A stretch of DNA of 64,000 bases, from the IMG/VR virus record IMGVR_UViG_3300042946_000906, one strand, 5' to 3'. Each line of letters opens with the position of its first letter. The first letter of the stretch is position 1. Made by a program: the position numbers and the translations under genes. The stretch comes from a virus (lineage: Duplodnaviria; Heunggongvirae; Uroviricota; Caudoviricetes). Of the stretch, positions 2,123 through 64,000 are shown one piece after another. The notes below the pieces were generated by a model, which was not told the origin of the DNA, searched no databases, and saw only the letters and a program-made list of their open reading frames with translations.

Positions 2123-2137
2123 TCTAACAAAAACACA

Positions 2138-2326: not shown

Positions 2327-2327
2327 T

Positions 2328-2837: not shown

Positions 2838-2838
2838 T

Positions 2839-12211: not shown

Positions 12212-12467
12212 CAAAAAATTCGTTGGTTATTTTATTATTGGCGCTGCCAATAGAGAAGAAGCTCAAAAAGGAGCTGGATTAGTATTATGGTCACAAAGTA
12301 AACCTGCTTTTATGACAAGATTGTTTAACAAAGGATTGTTAAATATCTACTGGGTCGATAAAGAAGACTACAGTCCTGTTGCAAAAGAAATGCAAGAAGA
12401 AAAAACTAAATTAGAATTTCCTAAACACAGAACTTACAGAAAGAAAAAAGTAGATGAAACAAGATAA
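12204..12467 (+). CDS. hypothetical protein (87 aa)
   Basis: Co-oriented ORF. Confidence 0.45.
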   Translation: MDNKKFVGYFIIGAANREEAQKGAGLVLWSQSKPAFMTRLFNKGLLNIYWVDKEDYSPVAKEMQEEKTKLEFPKHRTYRKKKVDETR

Positions 12468-32425: not shown

Positions 32426-32456
32426 AAGGGGGTTTAAACACCCCCTTTATTCTTTT
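32426..32456. terminator. bidirectional terminator between + block and minus-strand structural operon
   Basis: Perfect 8-bp stem AAGGGGGT-TTAAAC-ACCCCCTT followed by TATTCTTTT, and preceded by AAAAAGAT on the other strand. Confidence 0.6.
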
Positions 32457-32598
32457 ACTTTCCTTGTCCTCTGTACAATTTCTTGTAATTCTTTGAGGAT
32501 TTTAAAACAGATGTTTTAGTTTTACTATGAACACCTGGTCTTTTTACTTTTGGTCGCGCTTGAAACGTACCTGTTTGTGTTGTTTTTGCTTTTGCCAT
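32455..32598 (-). CDS. small highly basic protein (47 aa), not in the ORF track
   Basis: Hand translation MAKAKTTQTGTFQARPKVKRPGVHSKTKTSVLKSSKNYKKLYRGQGK. ATG overlaps the stop of the upstream micro-ORF (TAATG). Last ORF of the structural operon before the terminator. Confidence 0.4.
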   Translation of the reverse strand: MAKAKTTQTGTFQARPKVKRPGVHSKTKTSVLKSSKNYKKLYRGQGK

Positions 32599-32738
32599 TA
32601 TTCTTCAATTATTTGTTCGTTATTTTCAATTATTTCTTCAGTGATAATGACGTAGTCACCATGAGCTTCTGCTTCTAAAAGATCAAGAGTTTCTACATAC
32701 CCTTCTCCTACTATCATTCTGTATTTTGTAAGTATCAT
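32598..32738 (-). CDS. small acidic protein (46 aa), not in the ORF track
   Basis: MILTKYRMIVGEGYVETLDLLEAEAHGDYVIITEEIIENNEQIIEE. Starts 13 nt after the tail-fibre stop and is translationally coupled to the basic ORF. Confidence 0.35.
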   Translation of the reverse strand: MILTKYRMIVGEGYVETLDLLEAEAHGDYVIITEEIIENNEQIIEE

Positions 32739-32750
32739 AATATTTAATTT

Positions 32751-35537
32751 TTAATTTAACGCACCTCTTGTCGATGCTATTATGGTAAATCCAAGATAAT
32801 CAACAGTTATCATTTCTGTTGGTACAGTTATTGATACTGATGAAAAAGCTAACGCACTACCAGTTAAAAGTGCTGTTGGTATATTTGTTGTTAATGTGTC
32901 ACTCCATAACAATGCACCAGCCATGTTGTATAAACTGTATTCTATTAAATTTGTCGCCTTATACAAAACTCTCATGTGAAACCATATTCCACCATTTGAT
33001 ATAGGAAAAAAAGTTCCTGTTTGACTTCTTACTGATGCATTTGCTGTTTTTCCATATAATTGATTATCAACAATTTCCATATAAAAACCTTGTGAGGCAT
33101 CTGTAACAGTATTTGTAGCAACCATAAAACCTGCTCTAATTGTAGAACCTATTCCAATTATAGTATTTGGTGTTCTAAAAACTAAATCCATTTGCATTCC
33201 AATTGTTGGAAATATATTACCAATTGATAGCGAGTTTGTAGTAAAAAAACCACCACTGCTTGCTGTTGCTGATGATGAAATTCTCAACATCCCCGGATTT
33301 GTTCCATTAAAATAAGGCGCTACTGTAATTGATCCTGAAAGATACGTACCAGATGAAAAAGGTTGAATAGCTTGAGTTGCCAAACCAATAAAATCTGAAC
33401 TAAGAACTCTTGATACTTGTCGTAGTCTAAATTCTTCTGATCTATTTTCCCAAAGTGTAGTAGTTTTATTGTACAATAATGAATCACCATTATTTGGAGT
33501 ATTACTTATCAAGTCCACATTATGAAGCTCTTGTAACTCATACCCATTTTGCACCCTTACATACATTCTACCCGCACTTCCATTTGAAGCTGTTGTTACA
33601 ACACCTAAATAAACTAAATGATTAGGTGCATAAGGTTTAACATTTGTAATTGTTCCTGCTGTTGCACCAAGATATACAGGATCCCCATCATTCCAAGTTG
33701 ATGTAGGTAAAATACTTAATCCATCCAACAATCCTTGCATCATTATCAACCCCTTTTGATTAACACCAATAGATGTAGACAATACTAATCCAACTGTTTG
33801 AGCAGATGTCGCATCACTTGTATTATTTGCTCTTTTTACAGTCATTCTGTCTCCTGTTCCGCTAAAAGCATAAACAGGCATTCCTTTAGTTAGAGTAACG
33901 GAATCATCATTCGTAACATAAGACAATAAACTATTTGGAGCAGTTCCAATAACTTGAAACCTACTTGTTGTTGAATTATACACACAAAGCATTTCGCCTC
34001 CATTAATAATATCACCACCGATTAAAACACCATCATTATTTCTATATAAAGGTATTGCGCCAAGTGAATTTATATTTAGTGTTGCACTCGTAGTATTTCC
34101 ATTTGTAAATCTAATCAAGTAGGCATCAGCATCATTATAAGCAGTAACTCCTGTAATTGTAGCAGTATATGTGTCAGTTCCGGATGCTGTTGCGTGAGGT
34201 ATTCCGCCACCTGTTGCACTTGCATTTAATGTTCCTCCTGATAAAGTTAATCCTGTGCCAATAGTTATTTCTTCCATTACACCTGTACCTGCTGTGCTTC
34301 TACCAATAAGTTTATTAGTAGCCATAGATGTAGATATAACAGGCGTTGTTCCTCCTGAAGATGTTATAGGACTTGTAGCACTTACTGATGTTACACCAGA
34401 AGTAATCCAAGCAGTACCAGTTAAAGTTGAAGATAAAATTTGACCTGCTGTACCTGGTGAATTTGCTGAATCATATACTGCACCAGTAATTCTTGCATTA
34501 CCACTGACATGTAATTTTTGAGAAGGACTATTTGTTCCCATCCCAACATCACCTGCTTGAGTAATACGCATTCGCTCAGCACCATTAATTGTAAAAAGAT
34601 ATGCTGTTAAAGATTGTCCAAATAATGGGTTAAATTCTAATTGATTAGAAGTATTTATTTTAAAAACTGATAATGGTAAACCATCCGGTCTATAACTTAT
34701 GAAATGTCTATTATTATCTATTGCAATATTTCCATTTGTTATGGCAGCTTTTATAGAAAGTCCTGGATCAATTGCAGTTCCAACAAGTATTTTATTAGTT
34801 ATAGTATCTCCTGTATTATTAACACGAAATACACTATTTCCAATAACACCTGTGTACTTGATAAAATTTATAAAATCACCAGTATGCAGTGGTCTACTAT
34901 TTAATCTTATACCATCTGAAAGTGCAGAGGTGTCATCAAAGTCACCATAAAAACCAATATTTTCTGGACCAGAAACAGCAACATTGTATCCAGTCATTAT
35001 ACCATTTGCAGGTGCTGCTTTACCATTTATTCTTACAATTACTGCATCTGGAGTTCCTCCAGGTAAATTATAAAATGGCATATTGACATATAAGGTAGAA
35101 GGTACATTTGCAACATTACTTGCACCATAGTCACAATAAATTGTACCGTTTACGTCAAATCTAAAAGGTGTTGCAAAACTGATCGGTCTATTAACTATTA
35201 CCGAAGTACCATTGTCTTCTATAAGTGAATCGCCAATAGTTGTTGGTGTAAAAAATTTAGATACACGATTTGGTGTACCAGAACCTGTAATACCACCAAA
35301 AGAAGAAATTGCATTTTGTAATTTTTCTAATGCTGTAAGCACTGAATCTGCAGCAGTAATTGTACCAGGAATTGGTACAAATCCATCAAGAGGTCTATCA
35401 AGTACTACATCGTTTTCATTTGCACCATCATATAACTTAAAATATCCATTTTTAAGATAGAATTTTTTGAATCCTGGTTGCACAGAACCTGGGGATCCAA
35501 CGTAATTCGCTACATGTATTGGTACAAGATGCTTCAT
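32751..35537 (-). CDS. tail fibre / receptor-binding protein (928 aa)
   Basis: Gly/Ser/Thr/Asn-rich repetitive β-type sequence (…TGSGTPNRV…GTAWITSGVTSVSATSPITSSGGTTPVISTS…) typical of phage fibres; last large gene of the virion operon. Confidence 0.55.
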   Translation of the reverse strand: MKHLVPIHVANYVGSPGSVQPGFKKFYLKNGYFKLYDGANENDVVLDRPLDGFVPIPGTITAADSVLTALEKLQNAISSFGGITGSGTPNRVSKFFTPTTIGDSLIEDNGTSVIVNRPISFATPFRFDVNGTIYCDYGASNVANVPSTLYVNMPFYNLPGGTPDAVIVRINGKAAPANGIMTGYNVAVSGPENIGFYGDFDDTSALSDGIRLNSRPLHTGDFINFIKYTGVIGNSVFRVNNTGDTITNKILVGTAIDPGLSIKAAITNGNIAIDNNRHFISYRPDGLPLSVFKINTSNQLEFNPLFGQSLTAYLFTINGAERMRITQAGDVGMGTNSPSQKLHVSGNARITGAVYDSANSPGTAGQILSSTLTGTAWITSGVTSVSATSPITSSGGTTPVISTSMATNKLIGRSTAGTGVMEEITIGTGLTLSGGTLNASATGGGIPHATASGTDTYTATITGVTAYNDADAYLIRFTNGNTTSATLNINSLGAIPLYRNNDGVLIGGDIINGGEMLCVYNSTTSRFQVIGTAPNSLLSYVTNDDSVTLTKGMPVYAFSGTGDRMTVKRANNTSDATSAQTVGLVLSTSIGVNQKGLIMMQGLLDGLSILPTSTWNDGDPVYLGATAGTITNVKPYAPNHLVYLGVVTTASNGSAGRMYVRVQNGYELQELHNVDLISNTPNNGDSLLYNKTTTLWENRSEEFRLRQVSRVLSSDFIGLATQAIQPFSSGTYLSGSITVAPYFNGTNPGMLRISSSATASSGGFFTTNSLSIGNIFPTIGMQMDLVFRTPNTIIGIGSTIRAGFMVATNTVTDASQGFYMEIVDNQLYGKTANASVRSQTGTFFPISNGGIWFHMRVLYKATNLIEYSLYNMAGALLWSDTLTTNIPTALLTGSALAFSSVSITVPTEMITVDYLGFTIIASTRGALN

Positions 35538-35571
35538 AATATAAATAGTAAGTTATACTATAATATACGAA

Positions 35572-38500
35572 TTATTGGTTACGTTTCATAATATCAATAC
35601 GCCAATTTGGATCTGCAATATCTCTAAAGTTTTTAATACCAGTTAGATCGAAGAAATCTTTCATCAATTTTGCATCACCTTTCTCATAACCACCAGCTTT
35701 TCTCATATAGTGAGAATCTTTCCAGATTTCATGTTTCCATTGACTATCATCTTCATTAGGTTCTTCACCACCATTAAAAATATATGATAGTAAAAGATTA
35801 AATCCATGACTACTTGTTGCCATCAGCGCGTTAAATTCACGTGTGTATGCAGTAAATGTTGTAAAATTCTTAACGTATTCTTTAGAACCACCTCCAATTG
35901 GAAACATCGAGTTGGTTTCACCATGTACACCCCAAAGAACTCTAATTGCGTTACCTTCCAAGAATGATAATTCTTCATCATCATCGTCTTTTTTCCTAAC
36001 GTATGAAAGAGCCATCATACTTAAAACTGTAAAGAGAGCCATTGTCAACGCATCTCTTTTTGCATGCTGAATTTTAGACGCATAAAAACCATTTACTTTT
36101 GTTTTATTATCTCTCAAAAGATTTTTGCTACCAAACAATACATGTTTAGCAATTTCTTTTGGTCCATAATAGCGATATGCTGTTACAAATGCTCTCCAGT
36201 ATCCAACAGCAACTTCTCCAGATTCATAGTTTGGTCTAAGATATCCAAATCTATTTAACATCTGAGGTATTACATATTTTCTAAAGAAGAATACAAGTTT
36301 ACCTACTACATTTTCTTCAAAAGCAGTTTGATCTGCTTTAGCATAGTTACCTTGTGCTCTACGCATTTCAGAATAAATAGTATTTCTTAATCTGTTTTCA
36401 TCTTGTTGTGTATATTCTACATCATTGCGTTTTGATATGGAACCATCAGCATCTTTAAAATAGACCTCGTGAGCTGGTATAACTACATCATTACCTTCAG
36501 CATCTTTTCTGTACACTTTATCTCCTGTAACCGGATCAATGTCAAAAGTTTTAAATTTGTAACGATTTAAAATTGCGTACATTACTGTAACACCAATTTC
36601 TGTATCACCTTTATCTTGAAATAAATATCCAAGTTCTTGAACATTCATTGCTTTAGATAAAATTCTTCTACCTCTTGAACCAGTTACTTCATCGACATAT
36701 TTTATATAATCCTTTTGCATTGGGTTAAATAGTCTGTACAACATAGTAGATTTACTAATGTCACTAACTCTACCCCAGTCACCAAAATAGTTTTTGATAA
36801 AACCGTTTTCACCAAGACCATACACTTGACCTTTTGCCCACATATAGTCTTCTCTACTATAGTGATCACTTTCTAATCCTCCTGCTGCAATAAATGCTTG
36901 TACATTACCAGACACGTAGTTTTTAGTTTGGTTGACAACATCAAATCCAATTCTAATAAAACTGGTGTATGACATTACGTTATTTACAATCTTTGTAAGT
37001 TTTTTGTTAAGATATGTAAGTGATTGATCTTGTGCATTAATAAACTTTCTTCTTTCAAATTTAAGAATTGAAATTACATTTTCAAGTTCTGCAAGACGTT
37101 TATTCATATCAATTGGTCTACCTTCATCATCTTTAAGAACTGCTTTGTTTTGAGTTTGTTTTTTCAAATCCTCAGAAAGTAATTCAATACCAGAAATAAA
37201 AATATCAGCAACCGGTGCAACTTCTTGCATTGCAATATTATAGTTTGCTTCTGTTGTCCATTTCATTAAACAACCAACTGCATCTTTTGATTGCATGTTT
37301 TCAGGAAGTTGATCGTTAAATCTTAAACGAATTCTACCTCCATTATCACCAAAAGTATTTGACACTGTGTCTTGTACACTACGTGTTTTCCATGCTTTAT
37401 CAATGTATTGTTCCCATCTGTTTTTTGAACCTTCAATAATTCCTTCTCTTGAGAAGTTTTGCATTGTGGTTGAAGCAAATCCAGGAACTTGGTATCCAAT
37501 TTTTTTACCATCAGTTTTTACTTGTAAATCAAAAAACATGGTAGTTAATTTTTTGTAAAAATTAAATAGTTCAGGATCATTCATCATGTTCAAGTATTTT
37601 GAATTGATGTTTTCTACTTTATATGTAGACCTGTCTACTTGATAAGATTTGTCAGAATCTTGATAAATACCTTTTGGCATTGGAATTCCATCTGGTGATT
37701 TTAAAAAGTCTGGATTATACGACGACTCTTTTAATTTTTTGATTTTATACTTAGGATGTGGTACAGTTTCAGTATATTCTGCAGCAACGCCTGGAGCAGG
37801 AAGTCTTTGGTAATTAAAAGATTTTGCTATTGTTCGTTTGTAAATATCTTCTTCACTGTCTAATATACTTTGATATGGTTGTTGGTGAAATTGATTGTAC
37901 CATTTTTCAAATTTCTTTTCTTCAATGTCAAATTGACCTTCATAAAATATAACATCTTTTGTAGCATTATCAATTGCAGCTGCGTCTTTACTTGCCTCTG
38001 CTTTTTCTAAATCAAGTTGTGCTTTAATTAATAGTTTTTTTGAACTATTTAATGCTTTGATTTTAGCATCACGACTGTTTATGTAAGATTTACTTAACTG
38101 CAGTGAAGCAATTCTGTTTATTTGTTCTTTAATTTGAGTAGATCTTTGTTTTTCTTCAGGAGTAAATTTACTCATATCAAGTGTCTTGCCTTCAAATATA
38201 GACTCAAGTTGTGCTTCTATATCAGCAATTTGATCTGCTTCTTCTTCAGTAACAAACTGTGACTGAAGTATACCAGCAACCTTGTGTGGTTTTAGTATCT
38301 CAGAACGCTGTTTAATCAAATCAGATACTGCAGGATCAGAACCAAATATTTCTGCACGAGCTTCATATAATGCAGAAAGCTCATCATACCATTGTGATGT
38401 CGGTCTTGTTACTGTGTTATCAGCATACCATTTTTTAAGTAATTCAGGATGTTCTTGATACTTTGCAATTGCATTTGCTTTTCTTCTTTCGTAGAATGCA

Positions 38501-41457: not shown

Positions 41458-41460
41458 GTC

Positions 41461-52992: not shown

Positions 52993-53011
52993 AAAAAGTG
53001 ATTTTTTTAAA

Positions 53012-56000: not shown

Positions 56001-57838
56001 GTCATATGAACAGGAAGTCTAACTAATGTTCCTGTTAATGCTCCCATTAAAAATGTTTTTATACCTTGTTTACTTAGTTCATCTTCAAACGCCTGACCAA
56101 ATGATTCGCTTAATATTGAATTAGATTTCTGGTATTGACCAACATAGTAATCTTTCCAACCATTTGAAGAAATGCTTTGTAAGTTTTCTTGCAAACCTTC
56201 AACAAGTTCAAATCTTGCCATGTCTTTAAAGAACGCTTTACCTACTTGGAAAGTTGCTTCTTTTTTACCAAAGTCTGTTGCAATTTGTCCTGTAAGACCA
56301 TACGCTCCAGCAAATCCTTTTTTATAAAATTTCTTTAAGCCATTTTTTTCTACAAGTAACAAGTTATCTTTAGTTGCCTCAATCAATTCTCGCATTGTTT
56401 TATTGGCAGGTAAAAACTTATTAAACATGTTTCCAAATTGTAACTTGTTAGTTGCCAATAAGATTGCCATGTTTGTTTTATAATTTGCACCACTTGATTC
56501 CATTGATAACTTACGCATTTCTTCAAACTGCGTTTCATTTGGATTCTCACCATTATTACTATTACGATGATTGTCAATAAGTTTATTCAATGTATCACCA
56601 TAAGAAGACACAGCTTCAAAAGATGCTTCTGTTGCAGACATATTTAACTCTTGTGCTACACGTCTTAATCCTTGTGCACCCATACCAACAAGTTTACCTG
56701 TTGATAATCCTGCATCTACACCAGCTTTAATTCTTTCACCATATCTTATACCTGTACCAACTAATGGTAATCCTCTTGCGACATTACCTGTCATTTCAAG
56801 TACAGATTTTGATTTTAATATTGCTGGCAAGTTACCATTGAAAACTGTAAATGTATCATTTATAGCATCTCGTGCAATACTACCGGTTGTGTTAGATACA
56901 GCAGCCGCTTCATCTATTTTAGTCAATAATCTAATTTCTTCTGCAGACTTATTACCTAATGTAAAACCTTGTGCTGCTTCTCTAAAGAAATTTGTTTTCT
57001 TTGCAAGTGCTTCTGCAGATTCTCTGGCTCCTACTTCAACAGCTTCTCTACCAAGTAATCTTCCGAAACCTGCTCCAATTTTTGCAAAGGTAGGTGCAAA
57101 TAATGCAGCACCTTCACCACCACCAGGAGCTGTAGCCGCTGTTATTAAAATATCTGCAGCAATCTCTAACGACAGTGCTGCAAATGTTCCAAGCATAAAT
57201 CCACTACTTCCAATAAACTCAGACACACTTCCTTTTGAAAAAATACTATCTTGATCTTCAGGTTTTTGAAATACAAAGTTTTTTTGTGCATCCTTTTGAT
57301 CTTTATAATATTGCTGCATCATTTCATCTTCAGTAGGCATAAGCAAAGACATATCCATGTTTGCAATAGCAGAACCCATTCTACCATAACCAACAAAGTT
57401 TTCTTTGAATGCTGCACCAAATTTGCTTGACATAGAATCAAATCCTTTTGCAAGAGCTGTTCCCCATGTTTCCATTGCAGCAAATCTTGCATAGTTAGTA
57501 GGATCCTTTGGATTAAATCCATCTGGATTATATGATTCTTGTTGTGTAAAATTTGCTATACTATCAGCATCCAAGTATCTTATACCAGGTGACTTTTGGT
57601 AAGTCATTGAATCAATAAGAGATGTAGGAGGATCTATTTTGTTTTGCAACTGTTGTCTACCAACATACTGAGAATAACGCATAGCATCTCCAAGTGGATC
57701 ACCAGCTGGACCATCAGAAGAAGTTTCAACATTATTTGTTGCCTGATTATTTGATGACATTAATGACGCAAAATCCTGTTGTTGATTTGCATCAGTAGCA
57801 GTTAATGCTGATGCGTCTAATTCTGTGTTTTCAGCCAT
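53012..57838 (-). CDS. large virion protein (1608 aa)
   Basis: Continuous 4.8-kb ORF; Gly-rich segment (GAALFAPTFAKIGAGFGRLLG) and Pro/Thr-rich linker (PEPEIPEAAVTTTQGIPDEISQPIELPVTPVATVAPVTPAPAPTP). Confidence 0.6.
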   Translation of the reverse strand: MAENTELDASALTATDANQQQDFASLMSSNNQATNNVETSSDGPAGDPLGDAMRYSQYVGRQQLQNKIDPPTSLIDSMTYQKSPGIRYLDADSIANFTQQESYNPDGFNPKDPTNYARFAAMETWGTALAKGFDSMSSKFGAAFKENFVGYGRMGSAIANMDMSLLMPTEDEMMQQYYKDQKDAQKNFVFQKPEDQDSIFSKGSVSEFIGSSGFMLGTFAALSLEIAADILITAATAPGGGEGAALFAPTFAKIGAGFGRLLGREAVEVGARESAEALAKKTNFFREAAQGFTLGNKSAEEIRLLTKIDEAAAVSNTTGSIARDAINDTFTVFNGNLPAILKSKSVLEMTGNVARGLPLVGTGIRYGERIKAGVDAGLSTGKLVGMGAQGLRRVAQELNMSATEASFEAVSSYGDTLNKLIDNHRNSNNGENPNETQFEEMRKLSMESSGANYKTNMAILLATNKLQFGNMFNKFLPANKTMRELIEATKDNLLLVEKNGLKKFYKKGFAGAYGLTGQIATDFGKKEATFQVGKAFFKDMARFELVEGLQENLQSISSNGWKDYYVGQYQKSNSILSESFGQAFEDELSKQGIKTFLMGALTGTLVRLPVHMTTKGLEAASNKINERQYAKNPGENPVERVRKQFDKDIETLNTFFKQTEERTFKHKIVNFVNQTQEGQNQAEAAAKGLRYEFENSRDNALVSAISAAKRTESIDVLQRVVKEMGVDMSNEDFEKSFGVKLEDTKYTTPLEFSKSLAKDIKKYSDVTDSIRNKVKTFTEPTLYTQGSKEYFTAMIARSAEEDAVHTIAMNAVKGDMTAKRAQQIAQELLSNQSIANSSDYVIRVLTDPKILNDEKGNIMSELRIYRNNLKENTDESLKPKIEKQIKDKEEELANLEKWQSFFSNRVDASISLNEQGEIVPVENIVLDTFVGKRIDKKQTLLDGYGEPLDTIETTFDTNDDEVIEVFRQLLNVKNRQAGVDTQISETEMRDVHSKLVDYMKLDKDTKDYMNAVDTLMNPKNFKHAISKMTDGKMKFNVISFLDRYNVTIIQHVYGKGGLLDSLEEVNSSFNESDKLAIGFEIMEMMYQDENYKNLLTVALDPNLGIQNGEYVDKLLGSLKDNVTAKFADIVKKYAPSEYTQDITDEDYDQMIATGKIEPIKEQLLVDKIARGEIALGENEQKLVNSEQFKESIDAQVAIAKQKISEEKTGTKTFKDPDGKWGVATTNDEIITEGYDTEAEAIAASEAMTNTSETPVSEIPETTPGQQYMDMSVVELQDNLNSINEAYDELSIQGTQQEIDDLLQERNYVLAALNKKLKETPASNAPEPEIPEAAVTTTQGIPDEISQPIELPVTPVATVAPVTPAPAPTPNVTQLTESNEEGFVSAAEVNFLSSLLGETPVESAAEPFTVTTNDAQTYDVKDTSNNVLQTVDTETKADEIATSANNTRKDIDFVKKFMDEVLTNIEDKMDTVKYTSMQSRGEKAMKLYNKKNGTEFKTLEEYAATKEGRKSLEGIRESVITGKRIKYTSKKVTVAKPTEEVQTSLFDTVETPNVLSTGRNILESLNNELADFKSIVQENSKEISKFVSEEPISESSILEQLKKAAECFK

Positions 57839-57844
57839 GACTTA

Positions 57845-60460
57845 TTATTTCTTTTTGCTATTAATTGTTTGTAACGCAGTCATATAAGTTTCATATTGCG
57901 TTTTGATGTGTTCATCAAGTGCCATGATTCCTTCTATATCATCTGGTCCACTCATTGGAATAAAATCAACTCCTGAACTAACCCATTTGTCTTGTATTGG
58001 ATCTTTGTATTTAGTACTGTATGAAACTGAATAGTTACCATATCTGTCATAATTACCAGTAGCAGTAAAATCAAATCCTGAGTTTTTAATATTTGTTTTA
58101 GCATTTATAGTACCTGTTGGATTTTGGAACAACAAATTAAAATCACCAAGAGATGTTTGATTCATTGTAGATTCTTTTACAAATTTCTTAAACCTTGATA
58201 ATGAAGGATTTGTATTTATTGTTTCAAATGGCAATGTCACAACTAAAGGTGCTGTTGCAGTTTTTGGATTATCATTTTTATTTCTTACAGTTATTTTTAC
58301 AGTTTTCTTAACCGGATCACTGCTTACTTCATACTCGTCACCTAATGCTTCAGCTCTTGCTTTAGTGTTCATGTTAGCAAATTTAGTAAATACTTCAGGA
58401 TCATTTGCAGATGATGCCGCAACAGAACCAAATATATTACCCCATTCGTCTGCAGTAACACCTGTGTTTAATCTTGTTATAGTTGTACCGGTTGTTCTTT
58501 TTGTAAATTCTGGAGATACTTTTAAACTTAAACCATTTTTTTCTGCTTCTGACAACTTAGATAAATCAAATATTGGATACCCTGATTGTGTACGCCCTGT
58601 GATTTTTACTTTGTCTTTGTATGTCTCTTTTATGTTCCCTTCAGCATCAGTTATACTTTTAGCAATGTTTTCATAATTTTTATCAAGTTGTTCTCTTTGT
58701 GTAAATACTTGATCAAACTTACCCATTAAATTATTCAATACATACAATTGTTGTTTGTACTCTTGAACACTTCCTTGTTTTGCAAGAATAGGAATAAGTT
58801 TTTTTGCTTTAGTATAAACACCAAGTGCAAATGATTCAAGCATTGATTGTGCAAGTTGTGGAGTTTTTGGATCATATGCGTGATCAAGACCAAGTTTTTT
58901 TGCAAGTGAACCATACAATTTTCCTTCTTGTTCTGTTAATTTTTCATTACTACCACCAGCAATTCTTTTTAATTTATCCATTACTGTATAATACTTACCA
59001 GAATTATCACCACCAACAACAATGTTTAAAGCACCTTCTTTTGGATCAAATGCGTCTGAAAATAATTCGTTACGTGTAGTTGTCAATGATTCAGCAAGAA
59101 CATCAACAGCTGGTAAAGAAGAAGTTGTCTGAGAAGTACCAGTGATAGTACTTGTTGGCAACTCACCTTTTCCTCCGGCAATTCTTATTTTCAATGCCAT
59201 CTCACTATCAAACTGTTTTTGGTCTTGATCCATCTCCATTAACTTAAGATCTCTATCTTGATTCATTTTTGCAATAGCAAGACTTCTGGCATTATTTTCT
59301 TTCCACACATTCATTGCTACATCATCCTGATCTATTTCAACTTTAGATGTTACATTTGCATAATTTTTACCCCAATCTAATGCAGTTTTAATCATTGCAT
59401 TATTTTTGTAAAGATTGTGCAAGTTTTGTGCAATATATTCAAAACCACCAGTAGTTAAATCATTTAGATCTTTCTCTGCATTTCCTGCAGTTTTTTCAAG
59501 TTCTTGTTTTTGTGCTTGTAAACTATTATAATATGCCTGTTGTAAAACAGGTACTCCATCCGGATGTTCTCTATCAAATAGTTCTATTTTTTCAAGTACA
59601 TCAGATAATCCTAATTTAGTTTGAATTTCTGTTTTCTTGGCTTCTTCAACTGCAGGTTGTTCAAGTTTTTTTGCAAGGTTTTGTAATGCTTGATCTCTGG
59701 AAACTTTACTTGTTTCCATTTCTTCTTTAATGTCATTTTCAGCATTAACAAACCCCATTACTCGCAATTGTTCATTAAATCTACCATCTGCTTTCATTTC
59801 TGAAATTGCCCATTGTGCAAATGATGGTGCAACCTCTGGTCCATTAGTTTTTTTAATTTTATAAAAACCATGCACCTCATCTCTGACAATTTCTAATTTT
59901 AAATCTTTTACACGTTGTTCAAGAAATCCAGTTACATCTTCAAATGGTACAAAGTTTTTTGGTTGTGCTTTTAATATACTACCGTCACCACGTTTGGCAT
60001 TTTTTAATTCACTAATACCATAGTTCATATAAGCCATACTATAATCACTTGCAAGCGCTCTTTGCTTTGGATCGTCACTTGCTTTTAGTGCATTATATTT
60101 ACCTATTTCATTACTATAATATTTTGTCAACGCCATGTCACGACCAAGTTCTTTGTCTTGCGTAATTGGATCTACAATAGAATTTGCAATACTAATGTTT
60201 GCAGGATTTGATAAATCTAAGTTTGAAATGTCTTTTAAAGAGCTTTGTACTTTTTTAAACACTTCTTTGCGAAATTGTTCGTTTGATTCAGAAGTTAATG
60301 GATCATTTAATGCAGAGTTGATTATGCTTTTTACATAATTAAATCCACGATCATACTCACCTTGTTTAGTTCCCAACACTTGTGTAAGAAAAGCATAATC
60401 AGGTTTATATAAATTTAATTGTGGAAACTCGTCAGTAACTCCTTTTAAAAATGTTGCCAT
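57845..60460 (-). CDS. virion structural protein (871 aa)
   Basis: Continuous ORF, 7 nt from the neighbour; no assignable motif (portal or tail component possible). Confidence 0.55.
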   Translation of the reverse strand: MATFLKGVTDEFPQLNLYKPDYAFLTQVLGTKQGEYDRGFNYVKSIINSALNDPLTSESNEQFRKEVFKKVQSSLKDISNLDLSNPANISIANSIVDPITQDKELGRDMALTKYYSNEIGKYNALKASDDPKQRALASDYSMAYMNYGISELKNAKRGDGSILKAQPKNFVPFEDVTGFLEQRVKDLKLEIVRDEVHGFYKIKKTNGPEVAPSFAQWAISEMKADGRFNEQLRVMGFVNAENDIKEEMETSKVSRDQALQNLAKKLEQPAVEEAKKTEIQTKLGLSDVLEKIELFDREHPDGVPVLQQAYYNSLQAQKQELEKTAGNAEKDLNDLTTGGFEYIAQNLHNLYKNNAMIKTALDWGKNYANVTSKVEIDQDDVAMNVWKENNARSLAIAKMNQDRDLKLMEMDQDQKQFDSEMALKIRIAGGKGELPTSTITGTSQTTSSLPAVDVLAESLTTTRNELFSDAFDPKEGALNIVVGGDNSGKYYTVMDKLKRIAGGSNEKLTEQEGKLYGSLAKKLGLDHAYDPKTPQLAQSMLESFALGVYTKAKKLIPILAKQGSVQEYKQQLYVLNNLMGKFDQVFTQREQLDKNYENIAKSITDAEGNIKETYKDKVKITGRTQSGYPIFDLSKLSEAEKNGLSLKVSPEFTKRTTGTTITRLNTGVTADEWGNIFGSVAASSANDPEVFTKFANMNTKARAEALGDEYEVSSDPVKKTVKITVRNKNDNPKTATAPLVVTLPFETINTNPSLSRFKKFVKESTMNQTSLGDFNLLFQNPTGTINAKTNIKNSGFDFTATGNYDRYGNYSVSYSTKYKDPIQDKWVSSGVDFIPMSGPDDIEGIMALDEHIKTQYETYMTALQTINSKKK

Positions 60461-60482
60461 GTTTATTTATTGTATAAAAATA

Positions 60483-63400
60483 TTAATCTTCAAAAAAGTA
60501 TAAAGGTAATGCACCAAAATCAAATACTACACCACCATATTGTTTTTTTACTTTTCCACCATATTTTGATTGTCTTGGCGCAGGTAATGCTTGTCCAGAT
60601 AGAATAGCATTACGACCAGCAGTTTTATTATCAGCTACAGCAGCTTTACCATTTACTTCTGCATTTGCAGCATCTATCGCGTCTGACGCACTAAAACCTT
60701 GACTTTTCCAATATTTTACTCGATCTTCAAATATATATCCTGATTTACTATTTTTACCAGTTGGGTCTGCAGGATTAATATACGGATCATACACAGGTCT
60801 ACCTTGTGCATCAAACATTTGTCTGCCATCTTTAAAAGTTACATCACCTGTATTACGATCAATATCGTAATTAAACATGTCAGATAACTGATTAGTTCTT
60901 TGCCAGTTTGTAGTACCATTATTCCAAGCATCAAGCTGTCTCCATTTTAATGCACGTCTGGCATTATCATATTGTTGTCTTGCTGTTACTGATTGACCAA
61001 TGTAATTTTGTAATGAGTTTGCATTTAAAATCTTTTCTTGATTATTAATTCCAGCAATGTTACCAGAAAATCGATTAAAAATATTTGAATTTTGATTTTC
61101 AACATCACCAATAATATTTGCAGCTTGACCAAGTCTTTGATTTGATGGCGCAACTTGAGATGCACCAGCAACATTACCTGCTGTTGTATTGTATGCAGCT
61201 TCTCTATCAGCAGCAGCAGCTTCTTGCATCGCAGCAATTCTTCTATCAGGATCAAGCAATGCGTAACGAGGAGTTTCTAAATCAACTTGAGTTAATGCAG
61301 GAGGATAATAACCAACATTGTCAGTAAGTGTACCAGCAAAGTTTACTGCATCTTGTATCCACCAAGGTCTTCTTGGTTTTGGTTTTTCTTCAACTACTTC
61401 TTGTTTACCATTACATCCTGCTTCAGCTTCTTCACGTGTATTGTAAGAACCTGCAGGCATCTCTCCTTCATATTCAAATTGATATATTTCTTTTACACCG
61501 GTTACAGGATCTTGTCTACATGACCATGCTCTTTTTTTCTCTGGTATTGGTTCAGGTTTGTCTTCTGGTTTCTTAGCAGTCATTGCTTCTAAGAAAGCAT
61601 TGTGAAATGGACCTGGATCACCATCTGTAGCAAGTTCTAATATCTTATCATAACGTGCTTGACCTGTTAAACCTTGTAATTGATAAAGTATGTTTGGACC
61701 ATATTTACCTTTAGCTGCAACATTGGTTAAATAATCATCAATTGCTTTAGCACTTTCTGAATTTAACATTGCTTGTTGAGCTTTTGGTTTCCACACTTTG
61801 TCATAATTTTGTGGCTTCCAGTCTTCATATGTTGCTTTTTCTTTTGAAGTACTTGGTAATCTTTTTACACTGGATGGTTGAAATTCATAGTTTGGATCAT
61901 TATTTGCAATTACTTGCTTATTAGGATCTCCTGTGGAAACTGCTGCTACAGAACCATTTTGAATTCCTTGTGCTGTAGTTGCCATAAAGGGTTGAGATGC
62001 AGCAGTTGGTGCAGCATCTGCAGGAAATAAACTTGCAAGTTCAGCTGGTAATTCAGGATTGGCAACATTTGTATTTGTAGCAACAGGTGGAATATTAACA
62101 GATGTACTTGCAGATGTTGCTGCAGGATTAGCAACAGCATCCATTGCTTGTTGATCAAGAGATGGAGTTGCGGAAGTTGAAGTTGCAGAATCACTTTTTG
62201 ATTTATCTTCACCACTAAACAGGTCACTAAAAAAGTCACCTATACCACCAAAAAATCCGTTTGATGAACCATCATCCATCATTGAAGATCCAGAAGCATC
62301 GCCAACTGTGCTTGGACCAGTATCACCTTGATGTTTTGGTAAATATCCACCATGTCTATAACCTGGAAGCGGTTTACCATTAATAAAAGCTTCATGCGTT
62401 CCGTCTGGATAAAAAATTCTTATTGTATCACCCATTTTAACAGCAGAACCTTCTTGACCTTTAAACTTTCCACTTGGTATAATAAACTTTGGAAATGTTT
62501 GCATTTTACCAGAAACTCTTTTAGCAGGTTGCTGTGTTACCTTTGTGTTTGGTGTTACTACAGTTTTTGCTGCAGGTTTGCTGTTATCTTCTTTTACAAC
62601 AACTTTTGTTGTTAGAGTATCTTCTTCAACTACTTCTTCTTCAGCAGTATCTACCCAATCTTTTGCACCAGCAGTTTCAGCATCTGCTTGTGTAGTACCG
62701 GCAGCTGCTTCAGGAACTACGGTTGGAGCTATACCAACAATTTTGTTAAACTCGTCAATAGGAATTAACTTCTTGCCAAATTTAGTATCAAAGAAAGAAC
62801 CAATGTTTTGATCTGGATCATCAATTTGTTCTACACTTACAGCTTGTCTATTACCAGCTGCTGAACCATAAGGACTGTATACATCAGAAGCAACAACTTT
62901 ATATTTTTTGTTACCTTGTGTAAATGTATATCCAGGTTTCATTTGTGGTTTAACTGCAGGTTTTGCAGTAGCAACAGGAGCTGTAGGAGAATAATTAATT
63001 GTATTATATTTCACACCTCTACCAATATCAAATATAGATCTATCTTGATTCCACCAAGTAAGATTGCTAATATCTGTATAGTTATTTGGTTGAATTAAAT
63101 TATCTGTCAATCCCATTTTAAGAGACTTTTTTGCAGTTAATTTTTTCCAATCAGAAAGTGTCATTTCAGTCATTGTATCAGGATTACCATCCTCATCAAT
63201 TACTTGAATAGGTTTTTCAAATTGAACCCACATATCGTTTGCATCATCTCCATCACTATCATTATCAACATCAAAGAACCCTTCATAAGTTTTTACAATT
63301 CTATTCGGTTTACCATTTATATAAAACGTACCAGGAGCAGGTGCTGCAGGTTTAGGTTTTGCTTTTGGTTTTGGTTTAACTGTACCTGCTTTTTGGTACA

Positions 63401-64000
63401 TAGCCATTCCACCATAACGCATTTGACCTTCTTCTCCAGCAGCTTCTCTACCTTCCATTGCTTCTTCAGGCATACCCTCACCTTGTCCTTGCAATCCTGC
63501 CATAACAGATTGTGCAATTGCAGGTACTCCATCAGGAAATCCTTTCATTGATTCTTGCACCAATGCTAACATGCCAAGTTTCTCAAGATTATTTTTTAAC
63601 ATCTGAGAAGCAGTACGCTTTGATACAGGATCTGTTGCATCATCCTTTAGAATATTCATGTAGTTATTCATAGGATATTTTTGTGCAATCTTTGCTGGTG
63701 TAACACCACCTTTGTCAAATTTGGTAATACCAAAAATAGAAAGTACTTCAGGATCTTTAATCTTTAACTTTTTTGTGTCAGAGAATATAAATGAACCAGG
63801 TGCAACATTAAGAGGCACACCGCCTTCAGTATGTCTTTTACCAACAATTTTACTATGTTCTAAAAAACCATCATTGTTGATATCACCGATTACAGTTTCT
63901 CCACCTTCAGCTTCTATATTAGCTTCTTCACGTGGAACTGCACTGATAGTGTTTTTGACATTACTGTCTTGGTTAATTGGATTTACTTTGATATATAAAT
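60483..64000 (-). CDS. large virion structural protein, N-terminus outside the window (>1170 aa)
   Basis: The ORF-track 'M' at 63816-63818 is a GTG. The reading frame stays open on the minus strand to nt 64000, so the gene continues upstream beyond the window. Contains Pro/Ala/Lys linker (VKPKPKAKPKPAAPAPG). Confidence 0.55.
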   Translation of the reverse strand, partial: LYIKVNPINQDSNVKNTISAVPREEANIEAEGGETVIGDINNDGFLEHSKIVGKRHTEGGVPLNVAPGSFIFSDTKKLKIKDPEVLSIFGITKFDKGGVTPAKIAQKYPMNNYMNILKDDATDPVSKRTASQMLKNNLEKLGMLALVQESMKGFPDGVPAIAQSVMAGLQGQGEGMPEEAMEGREAAGEEGQMRYGGMAMYQKAGTVKPKPKAKPKPAAPAPGTFYINGKPNRIVKTYEGFFDVDNDSDGDDANDMWVQFEKPIQVIDEDGNPDTMTEMTLSDWKKLTAKKSLKMGLTDNLIQPNNYTDISNLTWWNQDRSIFDIGRGVKYNTINYSPTAPVATAKPAVKPQMKPGYTFTQGNKKYKVVASDVYSPYGSAAGNRQAVSVEQIDDPDQNIGSFFDTKFGKKLIPIDEFNKIVGIAPTVVPEAAAGTTQADAETAGAKDWVDTAEEEVVEEDTLTTKVVVKEDNSKPAAKTVVTPNTKVTQQPAKRVSGKMQTFPKFIIPSGKFKGQEGSAVKMGDTIRIFYPDGTHEAFINGKPLPGYRHGGYLPKHQGDTGPSTVGDASGSSMMDDGSSNGFFGGIGDFFSDLFSGEDKSKSDSATSTSATPSLDQQAMDAVANPAATSASTSVNIPPVATNTNVANPELPAELASLFPADAAPTAASQPFMATTAQGIQNGSVAAVSTGDPNKQVIANNDPNYEFQPSSVKRLPSTSKEKATYEDWKPQNYDKVWKPKAQQAMLNSESAKAIDDYLTNVAAKGKYGPNILYQLQGLTGQARYDKILELATDGDPGPFHNAFLEAMTAKKPEDKPEPIPEKKRAWSCRQDPVTGVKEIYQFEYEGEMPAGSYNTREEAEAGCNGKQEVVEEKPKPRRPWWIQDAVNFAGTLTDNVGYYPPALTQVDLETPRYALLDPDRRIAAMQEAAAADREAAYNTTAGNVAGASQVAPSNQRLGQAANIIGDVENQNSNIFNRFSGNIAGINNQEKILNANSLQNYIGQSVTARQQYDNARRALKWRQLDAWNNGTTNWQRTNQLSDMFNYDIDRNTGDVTFKDGRQMFDAQGRPVYDPYINPADPTGKNSKSGYIFEDRVKYWKSQGFSASDAIDAANAEVNGKAAVADNKTAGRNAILSGQALPAPRQSKYGGKVKKQYGGVVFDFGALPLYFFED

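Follow-up and report, generated by a model that had tools for sequence, protein, structure and literature searches.

A giant crAss-type RNA polymerase gene in the probable late virion-gene block of an uncultured aquatic phage

The DNA analysed here (the window) is a 64,000-nucleotide stretch of IMG/VR record IMGVR_UViG_3300042946_000906. The source contig is 83 kb long and the genomes of its relatives span 105-125 kb. Between 32455 and 64000 the minus strand is filled by six large ORFs, of 928, 1,961, 3,843, 1,608, 871 and at least 1,172 codons in 3' to 5' order, and two micro-ORFs, with sizes that agree with those given in a first-pass annotation of the same DNA. The features are as follows, from the 5' end of the block downward:

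60483-64000, minus strand: 3'-terminal 1,172 codons of a gene for a 1,196 aa protein, whose reading frame stays open as far as the window edge and whose start lies just past it
57845-60460, minus strand: 871 aa protein, mainly long helices with a C-terminal alpha/beta domain
53012-57838, minus strand: lineage-specific protein of 1,608 aa, its gene immediately preceding that of the RNA polymerase (RNAP)
41461-52992, minus strand: 3,843 aa fusion of an N-terminal region, a zincin module and a two-barrel RNAP (tblastn, profiles, motifs, fold)
49888-49902, minus strand: zincin motif HEAFH, aa 1031-1035 within YHEAFHGVFR (confirmed by translation)
43633-47145, minus strand: RNAP core segment, aa 1950-3120 (AF2 model and Foldseek)
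44872-44886, minus strand: catalytic DFDVD, aa 2703-2707 within GSDFDVDSLY (confirmed by translation)
35572-41457, minus strand: 1,961 aa RNAP-associated protein (Pfam, invariant residues, profile matches)
~40468-41085, minus strand: RecB-type PD-(D/E)XK nuclease domain, aa ~125-330 (Pfam PDDEXK_1, 3e-6)
~35968-37290, minus strand: C-terminal domain of the crAss001 gp49 / phi14:2 gp076 (gp65) type, aa ~1390-1830
32751-35537, minus strand: 928 aa tail-fibre or receptor-binding protein (Pfam, PDB match, N-terminus conservation), with fibre repeats at aa ~315-403 (match to PDB 8OND)
32808-33296, minus strand: SO2946-like C-terminal domain of the same protein, aa 748-910 (Pfam SO2946-like_C, 1.4e-14)
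32598-32738, minus strand: acidic 46 aa micro-ORF from the ORF list, starting 12 nt past the fibre gene
32455-32598, minus strand: very basic 47 aa micro-ORF (30% K+R), phrog_516
32426-32447, both strands: bidirectional intrinsic-terminator hairpin, AAGGGGGT-TTAAAC-ACCCCCTT, with T-runs on either strand

Down the minus strand from the gene at 60483, the spacers measure 22, 6, 19, 3, 34, 12 and -1 nt, the last being the nucleotide that the 47 aa micro-ORF shares with the stop codon of the 46 aa one; they are short, as the first-pass annotation had noted, but range from -1 to 34 nt rather than from 4 to 22. Its report that terminators are absent between the genes agrees with our terminator scan, which placed no minus-strand terminator-like site in any spacer of the block and found as many such sites in total as expected from shuffled sequence. 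The only strong hairpin (8 bp stem, 5 G-C pairs, detected on both strands) lies at 32426-32447, in the gap where the block converges with a plus-strand replication module that stops at 32419, and the signs of GC skew and AT skew flip at ~32 kb. The array is uninterrupted and co-directional, as described, but it extends past the window edge: genes of 508, 856 and ~1,746 aa continue it upstream on the source contig. A Pfam scan of the 26 window proteins gave no match to capsid, portal or terminase families, in keeping with the earlier observation that no such signature is recognisable in the window; these genes lie outside it. Family searches with the 46 aa micro-ORF gave no match; the 47 aa micro-ORF matches phrog_516 (function unknown) over its full length (E 1e-3).

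The largest gene is not a chance ORF, as a stop is expected every ~13 codons at 32% GC and the probability of none in 3,843 codons is ~1e-132. It encodes a crAss-type two-barrel RNAP (aa ~1950-3500) with a DFDxD loop, and a zincin-like metalloprotease module (aa ~900-1150) in the same frame. The RNAP assignment follows from an invariant catalytic loop, tblastn matches and a fold match. By tblastn the protein finds 88 crAss-like records of 'putative RNAP catalytic subunit' (best 8e-15), and by profile it matches p-crAss gp44 (8e-18), crAss001 gp50 (1.5e-12) and crAss001 gp47 (1.5e-18) and is colinear with phi14:2 gp077. The loop GSD(F/L)D(V/I)D is invariant in all 28 family members covering the site, and DFDVD aligns with position 1483 of crAss001 gp50, position 1433 of p-crAss gp44 and 1361-DFDID-1365 of phi14:2, the RNAP of which has a described DFDxD metal-binding loop (preprint 10.1101/2020.03.07.982082). 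An AF2 model of the core (pLDDT 78.6, pTM 0.72) has as its best Foldseek match 6VR4_A, the phi14:2 virion RNAP (E 3.3e-20, probability 1.00, 1,205 columns), followed by beta'-type RNAP subunits at E>0.03. In the zincin module, HE(A/S)FH is kept in every family member that spans the site; the motif is the same as that of crAss001 gp47 (YHEAFHVVFQ at 2157), and homology to the gp47 C-terminus, seen in the profile match at 1.5e-18, is also given by hhalign, at 98% against gp47 aa 2100-2294. The RNAP gene encodes 3,773-4,532 aa across 30 loci. RNase H or DUF1768 domains occur on some database homologs.

A gene of 1,842-2,031 aa lies directly after the RNAP gene in 23/23 loci extending that far. 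Judged from its residues, the 1,961 aa representative in the window has an intact RecB-type PD-(D/E)XK nuclease domain, with E226, D244, D258-x-K260 and Q319xxxY323 invariant in 25 sequences, and a C-terminal domain that also occurs in crAss001 gp49, in phi14:2 gp65 (gp076 in GenBank) and at the C-terminus of p-crAssphage gp44. Matches were obtained to crAss001 gp49 (4e-7), crAss001 gp47 aa 1732-1844 (6e-7), phi14:2 gp076 (2e-6) and a 2,748 aa protein of Leptolyngbya phage Lbo-JY46 (4e-16). The last large gene, of 928 codons, encodes a trimeric-fibre-type adhesin that is T/G/S/N-rich with few charges and matches PDB 8OND (Bd2133; 1e-7) via three copies of an ERMRI..G.VG.GT..P..KLHV repeat; at least 11 relatives have a conserved N-terminal attachment region at this position, with the remainder of the protein variable. 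The first-pass annotation had taken all six large genes to encode virion or ejection proteins, but this one is an external tail fibre, neither internal nor ejected.

The three genes upstream of the polymerase are candidate cargo genes because of their position, to which the 871 aa protein adds a fold similarity to gp46-type proteins. Sequence comparison revealed no significant link of any of the three to crAss001 C1/C2 or to any characterised protein, and their packaging in virions would follow by inference only. The 1,196 aa gene, seen at full length in the source contig, encodes two conserved domains, an N-terminal one of ~200 aa and a C-terminal one, joined by a hypervariable A/G/P/K-rich linker of ~700 aa. 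Among cluster representatives, 1,663 contain the N-domain (901 at E<=1e-30); the protein matched nothing in Pfam, PHROG, PDB or GenBank phages and had no significant link to crAss001 gp45 (hhalign 4.9%); we regard it as a candidate ejected or cargo protein. The 871 aa protein is constant in length across the lineage (867-895 aa), and none of its 115 database homologs has a Pfam domain. Its AF2 model (pLDDT 78.8) has no structural neighbour in the PDB; in BFVD it matches proteins of crAss-like NIOZ-UU157 (1.6e-23) and cr127_1 (6e-12), a phi17:2 'Structural protein' (5e-9) and an 866 aa protein of cr11_1 (2e-6) that is the ortholog of p-crAssphage gp46. These matches are to long helical proteins with low TM-scores (0.13-0.36), and the model suggests candidate cargo with fold-level kinship to crAss gp46-position proteins. 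The phi17:2 annotation is MS-based. The 1,608 aa gene is kept at the same position in 23 loci, and its product contains a conserved hydrophobic helix (aa 214-237) in which G213/F214/G217/T218 are near-invariant. A weak match to crAss001 gp47 aa 498-637 was unconfirmed by profile comparison. This protein may be a membrane-inserting ejection protein or an RNAP-associated protein.

Relatives supply the upstream context. On the same strand, close relatives encode CrAss_Ring_2 (2e-23), CrAss_Ring_1 (7e-10) and Crass_capsid (6e-31) Pfam families, the rings R1 and R2 corresponding to crAss001 gp43/gp40 and phi14:2 gp083/gp085, and a muzzle-like protein, its match weak but colinear. The plus-strand replication module carries the crAss gene set (DnaB, primase, SNF2-type helicase, AAA_24, UDG, PDDEXK, PolA, dNMP kinase and RNR), and the same genome design is found in annotated p-crAssphage, crAss001, phi14:2 and cr11_1. 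The crAss counterpart of the block is the region that follows the tail barrel, a region encoding virion-packaged proteins in crAss001 and phi14:2 (PMC10172136), and the centre of the block is the crAss 'transcription gene block'. The likeness to a crAss 'cargo + tail' block proposed by the first-pass annotation is broadly borne out by the ring and capsid families, although the polymerase at its centre had gone unrecognised. We see in this locus a known design in a new and divergent form, not a new kind of system.

The phi14:2 counterpart, gp66 (GenBank gp077; PDB 6VR4), is likewise a single-chain two-barrel RNAP with a GSDFD(I/V)D loop and a colinear alignment, but it has 2,180 aa and identity is very low (13% in structural alignment). 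The phi14:2 block also ends convergent with the replication module in late, structural orientation. Its zincin motif lies in gp65 (HEIMH at aa 245), whereas here the zincin shares a polypeptide with the RNAP and the gp65-like domain, in the next gene downstream, is fused to the nuclease; a homolog of phi14:2 gp67 (gp078) was not detected. In p-crAssphage (Carjivirus communis), gp45 is an 'RNAP-associated protein fused to zincin protease' and gp44 an 'RNAP catalytic subunit fused to unknown RNAP subunit'. This phage and cr11_1 show the same strand order of zincin, RNAP and gp49-like domain, a block convergent with the replication genes, and upstream a ~860 aa gp46-type protein fold-similar to the 871 aa protein. 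Contrary to the first-pass annotation, the genes are not larger than those of Crassvirales, since the RNAPs of p-crAssphage (gp44, 4,070 aa) and cr11_1 (4,388 aa) are of comparable or greater size. Relative to p-crAssphage, ORF boundaries are shifted (zincin joined to the RNAP, gp49-like domain in a separate nuclease-bearing gene), an additional, lineage-specific gene of 1,608 aa separates the RNAP gene from the 871 aa gene, the next gene after the block is that of a tail fibre, and BLAST aligns only ~200 aa around the catalytic loop. The crAss001 cargo set comprises C1 (gp45), C2 (gp46), gp47, gp49 and gp50 (PMC10172136). No significant sequence homolog of C1 or C2 was found here; the zincin module matches gp47 aa 2030-2295, the PD-(D/E)XK domain matches gp47 aa 1732-1844, and the gp49-like domain and gp50 catalytic loop are common to both. 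R1, R2 and muzzle-like protein of crAss001 type precede the block in relatives, but crAss001 spreads the zincin, nuclease, gp49-like and RNAP functions over three genes on two strands.

The nearest cultured phage is Lbo-JY46 (PP438436), which has a cyanobacterial host. Its MCP is 28% identical to that of a 105 kb relative (L128) over 99% of the length (8e-50), and it shares R2, R1 and the muzzle-like protein (E 7e-163). Proteins of 845 aa (871-like; weak, hhalign 85%), 1,552 aa (1,608-like; 1e-12, hhalign 97%) and 2,748 aa (gp49-like C-terminus) follow in matching order, their genes convergent with the replication module, and all of these genes are annotated as hypothetical. The N-domain of the 1,196 aa protein, widespread elsewhere, was not found in Lbo-JY46, nor was a DFDxD giant polymerase detected in the matching gene region or by tblastn; even among relatives, then, the composition of the module varies.

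We consider, at a probability of about 85%, that an uncultured crAss-like podophage (Crassvirales-type) of aquatic origin carries here the distal part of its late virion-gene block, with a virion-type RNAP and candidate cargo. That the giant ORFs are assembly chimeras or conceal frameshifts or recoded stops, a doubt raised in part by the first-pass annotation, has a vanishingly small probability: recoded stops and disrupted RNAP genes do occur in some crAss groups (PMC7886860), but these ORFs are intact under code 11 and the same gene order and lengths recur, at 32-96% identity, in 25-30 IMG/VR contigs that are independent of one another (the RNAP and ~1,960 aa genes in 30 loci, the 1,196, 871 and 1,608 aa genes in 25), with identical proteins on 16 contigs from three assembly sources (ENA, JGI and Logan). 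We rejected this reading on the strength of that cross-contig conservation. It is extremely unlikely that the giants are the tape-measure and fibre proteins of an ordinary siphovirus or myovirus tail module, the other doubt raised. They are very long, mostly helical and have low-complexity stretches, and the BFVD matches of the 871 aa model include, at low rank, a few tape-measure entries (E>0.09), but no tape-measure, sheath, tube or baseplate family was matched, the largest protein is an RNAP by sequence, motif and fold, and relatives have the ring proteins of a crAss podovirus tail barrel and a crAss MCP; the 6VR4 match and these ring and capsid families led us to discard it.

A different polymerase system, either the single-subunit vRNAP of N4-like phages (Schitoviridae) or the split multisubunit RNAP of phiKZ/AR9-type jumbo phages, is very unlikely. 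N4-like phages too are reported to package a ~3,500 aa vRNAP plus ejection proteins (PMC13434306), and non-virion RNAP chains of phiKZ and AR9 gave weak local fold matches (E 0.2-0.6). Against this, the single-chain two-barrel phi14:2 gp66 surpasses every other fold match by 18 orders of magnitude, the DFDxD loop is a two-barrel signature as opposed to the T7-like fold of N4 vRNAP, no T7-type RNAP Pfam family was matched, and tblastn matches are confined to crAss-like phages. The polymerase block could also be homologous to that of crAss phages yet encode unpackaged intracellular factors for transcription, replication or anti-host functions, with only the fibre structural. The apparently active nuclease domain would suit such a role, as would the accessory domains on some RNAP homologs, and the seeming lack of the polymerase in Lbo-JY46 suggests that it may be dispensable for virion design. 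We nevertheless think this unlikely, given that the genes are in late, structural orientation, right after the tail-barrel and muzzle genes and ahead of the tail-fibre gene, and that virion mass spectrometry detected the homologs crAss001 gp47/gp49/gp50 and phi14:2 gp65/66/67.

For the preferred reading of a late block with virion cargo, we infer packaging, ejection, timing and activity by analogy with phi14:2, in which gp65/66/67 are present in virions and gp66 transcribes early genes in a rifampicin-resistant manner (preprint 10.1101/2020.03.07.982082), and crAss001, in which gp45-gp50 were found in virions by mass spectrometry (PMC10172136). The giants would be made late and packed in the capsid as cargo, probably auto-inhibited. 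Upon binding of the fibre to the host they would precede the DNA through portal, tail barrel and muzzle, ejected in a partly unfolded state, and the polymerase would then transcribe the plus-strand early genes without need of host RNAP. A role for the zincin module may be to cleave or activate the fusion protein, or to cut peptidoglycan, and the nuclease may have host or phage DNA as its target upon entry. The best candidates for a conduit or ejectosome would be the 1,196, 871 and 1,608 aa proteins. Features relevant to an ejectosome are the long disordered linker of the 1,196 aa protein and the conserved hydrophobic helix of the 1,608 aa protein.

Our best explanation for the minus-strand half of the window is that a divergent crAss-like phage, aquatic and uncultured, ends its late block here with genes for a virion RNA polymerase, cargo proteins and a fibre. 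The first-pass annotation had described six large minus-strand ORFs and two micro-ORFs between 64000 and 32455. The ORF list, the odds of the stop-free runs and the terminator scan confirm this layout, since the ORFs are free of stops and separated by short spacers without internal minus-strand terminators.

Features of the giant-gene block (large ORFs from the ORF list)
60483 to window edge, minus strand, 3' part of the gene for a 1,196 aa protein (1,172 codons, stop-free)
57845-60460, minus strand, 871 aa ORF
53012-57838, minus strand, 1,608 aa ORF
41461-52992, minus strand, 3,843 aa ORF
35572-41457, minus strand, 1,961 aa ORF
32751-35537, minus strand, 928 aa ORF
32598-32738, minus strand, 46 aa micro-ORF, strongly acidic, downstream of the 928 aa gene
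32455-32598, minus strand, 47 aa micro-ORF, last ORF of the late block
32426-32447, both strands, hairpin with a perfect 8 bp G+C-rich stem (5 G-C pairs) and T-runs on either strand

The spacers of the block measure 22, 6, 19, 3, 34, 12 and -1 nt, and no Shine-Dalgarno-like sequence is visible by eye in the AT-rich leaders of its genes. At 32% GC, the chance of 3,843 consecutive stop-free codons is ~1e-132. GC skew and AT skew both change sign at ~32 kb. Terminator-like hairpins are as numerous in the window as expected from shuffled sequence, and the block spacers contain no minus-strand hairpin of this kind. The sole strong hairpin, at 32426-32447, occupies the 35 nt convergent gap between the end of a plus-strand gene (32419) and the last minus-strand ORF, and is probably a bidirectional terminator shared by the replication and late arms. 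Scans for sigma-70 promoters gave counts equal to or lower than those from shuffled sequence, and we considered them uninformative. The 47 aa peptide (MAKAKTTQTGTFQARPKVKRPGVHSKTKTSVLKSSKNYKKLYRGQGK) contains 30% K+R and aligns along its whole length with PHROG 516 (unknown function). It may be a small protein that binds nucleic acid or sits inside the virion.

An exact look-up found an identical 871 aa protein on 16 contigs, the longest of which (ena:ERZ28008711:k141_1424641, 83,045 bp) contains the window at positions 9643-73642 and supplies the full length, 1,196 aa, of the gene at the window edge. Upstream of this gene, genes of 508, 856 and ~1,746 aa follow on the same strand, the contig ending inside the last of them, so that the co-directional array extends beyond the window. 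To the left of the window, 9.6 kb of contig sequence carry nothing but small plus-strand genes and the gene for an ATPase of AAA_5/CbbQ type. The capsid module is present in neither the window nor the incomplete source contig and lies outside both. A megablast search with 23 kb against 50,697 phage records returned no match. The polymerase segment of the 3,843 aa protein retrieved 30 IMG/VR loci, at identities from 90% down to 32%. Complete polymerase genes in this set encode 3,773-4,532 aa, and a gene of 1,842-2,031 aa comes next in all 23 loci that extend that far. The 1,608 aa family served to collect 25 loci, and these keep the order 1,000-1,650 aa, 867-895 aa, 1,440-2,050 aa and then polymerase. 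Recurrence of these lengths and this order across the two sets excludes assembly chimeras and hidden frameshifts in the giant ORFs. Pfam and PHROG scans of the six giants and the 508, 856 and ~1,746 aa upstream proteins returned only PDDEXK_1 and SO2946-like_C.

The catalytic-loop motif GSDFDVDSLY is found at aa 2703 of the translated 3,843 aa protein. Its core, GSD(F/L)D(V/I)D, is invariant in 28 of 28 relatives covering the loop, which aligns with the loops of phi14:2 (1361-DFDID-1365), crAss001 gp50 and p-crAssphage gp44 (preprint 10.1101/2020.03.07.982082). A tblastn search with aa 1500-3843 retrieved 88 crAss-like records, mostly annotated as ‘putative RNAP catalytic subunit’ (best E 8e-15), and family profiles matched crAss RNAP catalytic subunits at 8e-18 and 1.5e-12. 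In the profile alignment, residues 792-924, 1173-1369 and 1467-1665 of phi14:2 gp077 are colinear with ~1994-2119, 2505-2711 and 2866-3069 of the query. An AlphaFold2 model of aa 1950-3120 (pLDDT 78.6, pTM 0.72) matches the phi14:2 virion RNAP (gp66; PDB 6VR4_A) over 1,205 columns with E 3.3e-20 and probability 1.00; its other fold matches are exclusively beta'-type RNAP subunits at E>0.03. Judged from this whole-model match rather than barrel by barrel, the protein is predicted to have two double-psi beta-barrels in one chain in the gp66-type overall fold. PDB sequence searches with single sequences and profiles gave no match for the RNAP segment, and what identifies it as an RNA polymerase is tblastn, the motif and the fold.

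The same polypeptide carries, upstream of the RNAP part, a zincin (HExxH metalloprotease) motif, YHEAFHGVFR, at aa 1031. HE(A/S)FH is kept in all relatives covering the site, and crAss001 gp47 has a homologous motif at its C-terminus, YHEAFHVVFQ (profile 1.5e-18; hhalign 98%). This was the only link recovered when N-terminal, middle and C-terminal pieces of the polymerase protein were compared with crAss001, p-crAssphage and phi14:2 by hhalign and family HMMs. Some homologs of the RNAP giant (P0123, P0128, P0134) have additional precomputed Pfam domains, namely RNase H (PF00075), DUF1768/YbiA (PF08719) and PF25176, which suggests that RNAP polyproteins pick up accessory enzymatic modules. Zincin-like motifs also occur in the genes upstream of the window, with HEVGH at aa 626 of the 856 aa protein (L002:2147-4717, L002 being the source-contig stretch that reaches upstream) and HEKNH in the C-terminal part of the ~1,746 aa protein (L002:3-2144). 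The latter part is related to phi14:2 gp081 (3e-7), itself with two HExxH motifs; the 713 C-terminal residues present in the contig have no match to the muzzle-like profile. With these further HExxH motifs, the late block may encode several metalloprotease-like modules.

Downstream of the polymerase, the 1,961 aa protein has a PDDEXK_1 domain at aa 145-265 (Pfam, E 3e-6, above the gathering score). All 25 sequences compared keep its RecB-type PD-(D/E)XK residues E226, D244, D258-F-K260 and Q319xxxY323 unchanged, which makes it probable that the nuclease is active. The C-terminal ~450 aa are related to crAss001 gp49, phi14:2 gp076 (numbered gp65 in the preprint) and a 2,748 aa protein of Leptolyngbya phage Lbo-JY46, and PDB sequence searches with the 1,961 aa protein gave no match. 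crAss001 gp49 also matches the C-termini of p-crAssphage gp44 and of the cr11_1 4,388 aa protein; p-crAssphage (gp45 and gp44) therefore has the same order of zincin, RNAP and gp49-like domains as the 3,843 and 1,961 aa proteins, although the ORF boundaries differ. It has been reported that some crAss-like phages encode one fused, probably cleaved polyprotein (preprint 10.1101/2020.03.07.982082), and that a large transcription-block protein of some crAss-like phages contains a PDDEXK domain (PMC7886860). The domain order and the nuclease of the window fit both remarks, and the retention of the order zincin, RNAP, gp49-like while gene boundaries move supports the published idea of a processed polyprotein.

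A walk upstream of the giants through IMG/VR relatives (L007, then L012, L014/L015 and L128) led to the following genes, all on the same strand. These encode fibre-like proteins with fn3, Fib_succ_major/Lcl_C and TSP1 domains, an Mre11-like phosphoesterase, and proteins with the Pfam domains CrAss_Ring_2 (2e-23) and CrAss_Ring_1 (7e-10) that match crAss001 gp40/gp43 and phi14:2 gp085/gp083 by HMM. A protein of 1,700-3,000 aa aligns weakly (3e-4), though colinearly, with gp44, the muzzle protein of crAss001. In the 105 kb relative L128, a 550 aa protein belongs to Pfam Crass_capsid (PF23898, Crassvirus major capsid protein; E 6e-31), a gene absent from both window and source contig. L128 is tied to the window by its 871 aa, 1,608 aa and RNAP proteins, which are 69-82% identical to ours, and it shares 89% identity in ring protein 1 with the intermediate relative L012. 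Together, the crAss major capsid protein, ring proteins and muzzle-like match of the relatives indicate by sequence that the lineage of the window is crAss-like. The best GenBank match of the L128 capsid protein is Lbo-JY46 (an unclassified member of Caudoviricetes; 28% identity, 8e-50), with epsilon-group and other crAss-like phages next at 22-24%. Relatives of the ring-1 protein were found in 168 IMG/VR stretches, of which 80 were kept, on contigs of up to 120 kb and one of 246 kb. New family-level clades of marine Crassvirales have been reported previously (PMC11502894).

On the plus strand, the other half of the window carries a replication and nucleotide-metabolism module, convergent with the giant-gene block.

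Features of the plus-strand arm (domain scan)
200-1048, in the plus-strand arm, SPFH/Band 7 protein
12454-13557, plus strand, ResIII/Helicase_C helicase (SNF2-type)
15710-16696, plus strand, DnaB_C
17358-18116, plus strand, AAA_24
18973-19980, plus strand, DnaG-type primase zinc finger
27202-28053 and 29873-31732, plus strand, spore-photoproduct-lyase-like radical-SAM protein (match 3.5e-10) and RNR with a B12-dependent (class II) insertion domain

UDG, a PD-(D/E)XK exonuclease, a family A DNA polymerase (PolA), DUF932, a dNMP kinase and a metallophosphatase are also encoded. This arm thus has the conserved crAss replication set (primase, DnaB, SNF2-type helicase and AAA ATPase), and the structural and transcription genes lie on the opposite one. 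A lone minus-strand ORF of 207 aa (28553-29176) interrupts the replication arm, and GC skew dips at 28-30 kb.

The layouts of four crAss-like genomes identify the design of the window as a known one. p-crAssphage has gp49 (at least 1,503 aa), gp48, gp47, gp46, gp45 (1,957 aa, zincin) and gp44 (4,070 aa, RNAP fusion), with convergent replication genes, and the cr11_1 block comprises proteins of 1,156, 268, 970, 866, 1,988 and 4,388 aa. In phi14:2 the series gp082 (1,340 aa), gp081, gp080, gp079, gp078 (1,797 aa), gp077 (2,180 aa, RNAP) and gp076 (1,421 aa) is likewise convergent with the replication genes, and all of these are structural proteins verified by mass spectrometry. crAss001 has the muzzle gp44, C1 (gp45) and C2 (gp46), then gp47, gp49 and gp50, all detected in virions (PMC10172136). 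The suggestion that the genes of the window are even larger than those of Crassvirales does not hold, given the 4,070 aa of p-crAssphage gp44 and the 4,388 aa of the cr11_1 protein.

The 928 aa protein is set apart by its composition, being T/G/S/N-rich with 6% K+R. It contains the repeat ‘ERMRI..G.VG.GT..P..KLHV’, which we take to be of phage-tail-fibre type. Three copies are present and match Bd2133 (PDB 8OND) at E 1e-7, and the C-terminal domain is SO2946-like_C (Pfam, 1.4e-14). In at least 11 relatives the gene at this position conserves the first ~90-250 aa and varies in the remainder, and in some it encodes just ~390 aa. With its fibre repeats, conserved N-terminal anchor and variable distal part, the protein resembles a trimeric tail-fibre-type adhesin, and we read it as a putative tail fibre or receptor-binding protein that would belong to the virion but not be ejected.

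No Pfam, PHROG or PDB-sequence match was obtained for the 1,196, 871 and 1,608 aa proteins, nor any match in PDB sequence searches for the 508 aa upstream protein. Compared by family HMMs and hhalign with crAss001, p-crAssphage and phi14:2, these four families gave no significant match, including to crAss001 C1 (gp45) or C2 (gp46), the only links among them being to Lbo-JY46. The 1,196 aa protein consists of a conserved N-terminal ~200 aa, a hypervariable A/G/P/K-rich middle of ~700 aa and a conserved C-terminal domain. Its N-domain (L002:6388-7098; consensus ...EAEGGET..GD.N.DG..EH.KI.GKRHS.GGVPLN.PEGSFIFSD...) is widespread in metagenomes, where it occurs in 1,663 representatives of clusters built at 50%, in 901 cases with E<=1e-30, and is sometimes internal in proteins of 1,300-1,770 aa. 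Scans of 37 diverse homologs revealed no shared Pfam or PHROG family, tblastn found no match in GenBank phages, and the PDB has no counterpart. In one homolog it is accompanied by an L-alanyl-D-glutamate peptidase domain. crAss001 C1 spans the portal channel (PMC10172136), and equating the 1,196 aa protein with it had rested on similar architecture and repeated weak matches to one gp45 region; we reject this, the best hhalign of the C-domain against gp45 (aa 655-788) having a probability of 4.9%.

The 871 aa protein has 115 database homologs of near-constant length and a confident, mostly helical model. Foldseek against the PDB gave nothing below E 0.1; a local PUR-repeat-like match was seen. 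Against BFVD the model matched crAss-like proteins of ~860-1,130 aa, among them those of NIOZ-UU157 (1.6e-23) and cr127_1 (6e-12), a phi17:2 ‘Structural protein’ (5e-9) and the 866 aa protein of cr11_1 (2e-6), an ortholog of p-crAssphage gp46. TM-scores are 0.13-0.36, and the hhalign probability to the gp46 type is 0.5%; because the TM-scores are low, we rate the fold matches as moderate evidence, and the protein may resemble the gp46-type ~860 aa proteins in fold, in size and in its position upstream of the RNAP block. The 1,608 aa protein, with a homolog in Lbo-JY46, contains a conserved hydrophobic helix at aa 214-237 (FMLGTFAALSLEIAADILITAATA), the sole TM-like segment among the six giants and reminiscent of an N-terminal TM helix that is proposed to insert crAss001 gp45 into the host membrane (PMC10172136). 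By position, architecture and analogy, the 1,196, 871 and 1,608 aa proteins are candidate ejected cargo or conduit proteins.

Virion packaging, host entry and rifampicin-resistant early transcription are known only for the phi14:2 and crAss001 homologs (PMC10172136; preprint 10.1101/2020.03.07.982082). From gene position we infer that the polymerase of the window is packaged, translocated into the host and transcribes early genes. Domain identities and genome layout are established here, and the steps of the mechanism are drawn from phi14:2 and crAss001. By analogy with these phages, the giants would be synthesized late, packed into the capsid, probably in an inhibited form, and ejected via portal, barrel and muzzle ahead of the DNA, whereupon the phage polymerase would carry out early transcription of the plus-strand arm; the zincin module might contribute proteolytic activation. 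We regard as rather unlikely the more far-reaching proposal that the lineage is a large uncultured aquatic sister of the classical Crassvirales (105-125 kb genomes, hundreds of metagenomic relatives, nearest isolate a cyanophage) in which the ejected-protein set has largely been replaced: the zincin-RNAP polyprotein would process itself, its RNAP partner would be armed with a nuclease, and three cargo families would be unrecognised ones.

The design itself being already known, what is new are the rearranged domain fusions and the three unannotated conserved families (~1,200, 870 and 1,600 aa), which are good candidates for crAss-type ejection machinery in aquatic phages. The phage would be a well-delimited and highly divergent addition to the few that carry their own giant two-barrel RNAP in the capsid. 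What makes the window most useful are the annotation leads it gives and the N-domain of the 1,196 aa protein, which is widespread and unrecognised. If that domain, on the sister-lineage proposal above, is a general portal-/tail-docking or membrane-penetration module, it would represent a new, widespread class of phage ejection proteins, and the crAss virion-RNAP strategy would extend beyond Bacteroidota hosts.

At 62354-89872 of Lbo-JY46 (PP438436), the nearest cultured phage, ring, muzzle and cargo genes follow the crAss-type order, and no DFDxD giant polymerase was found in this region. The phage shares ring, muzzle-like, 871-like, 1,608-like and gp49-like genes with the lineage, all annotated as hypothetical, and our results provide functional leads for these unannotated genes of a cultured cyanophage. 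A 674 aa protein of Lbo-JY46 contains the motif SDWDGDY, and its 2,748 aa protein combines two HExxH motifs with the gp49-like C-terminus.
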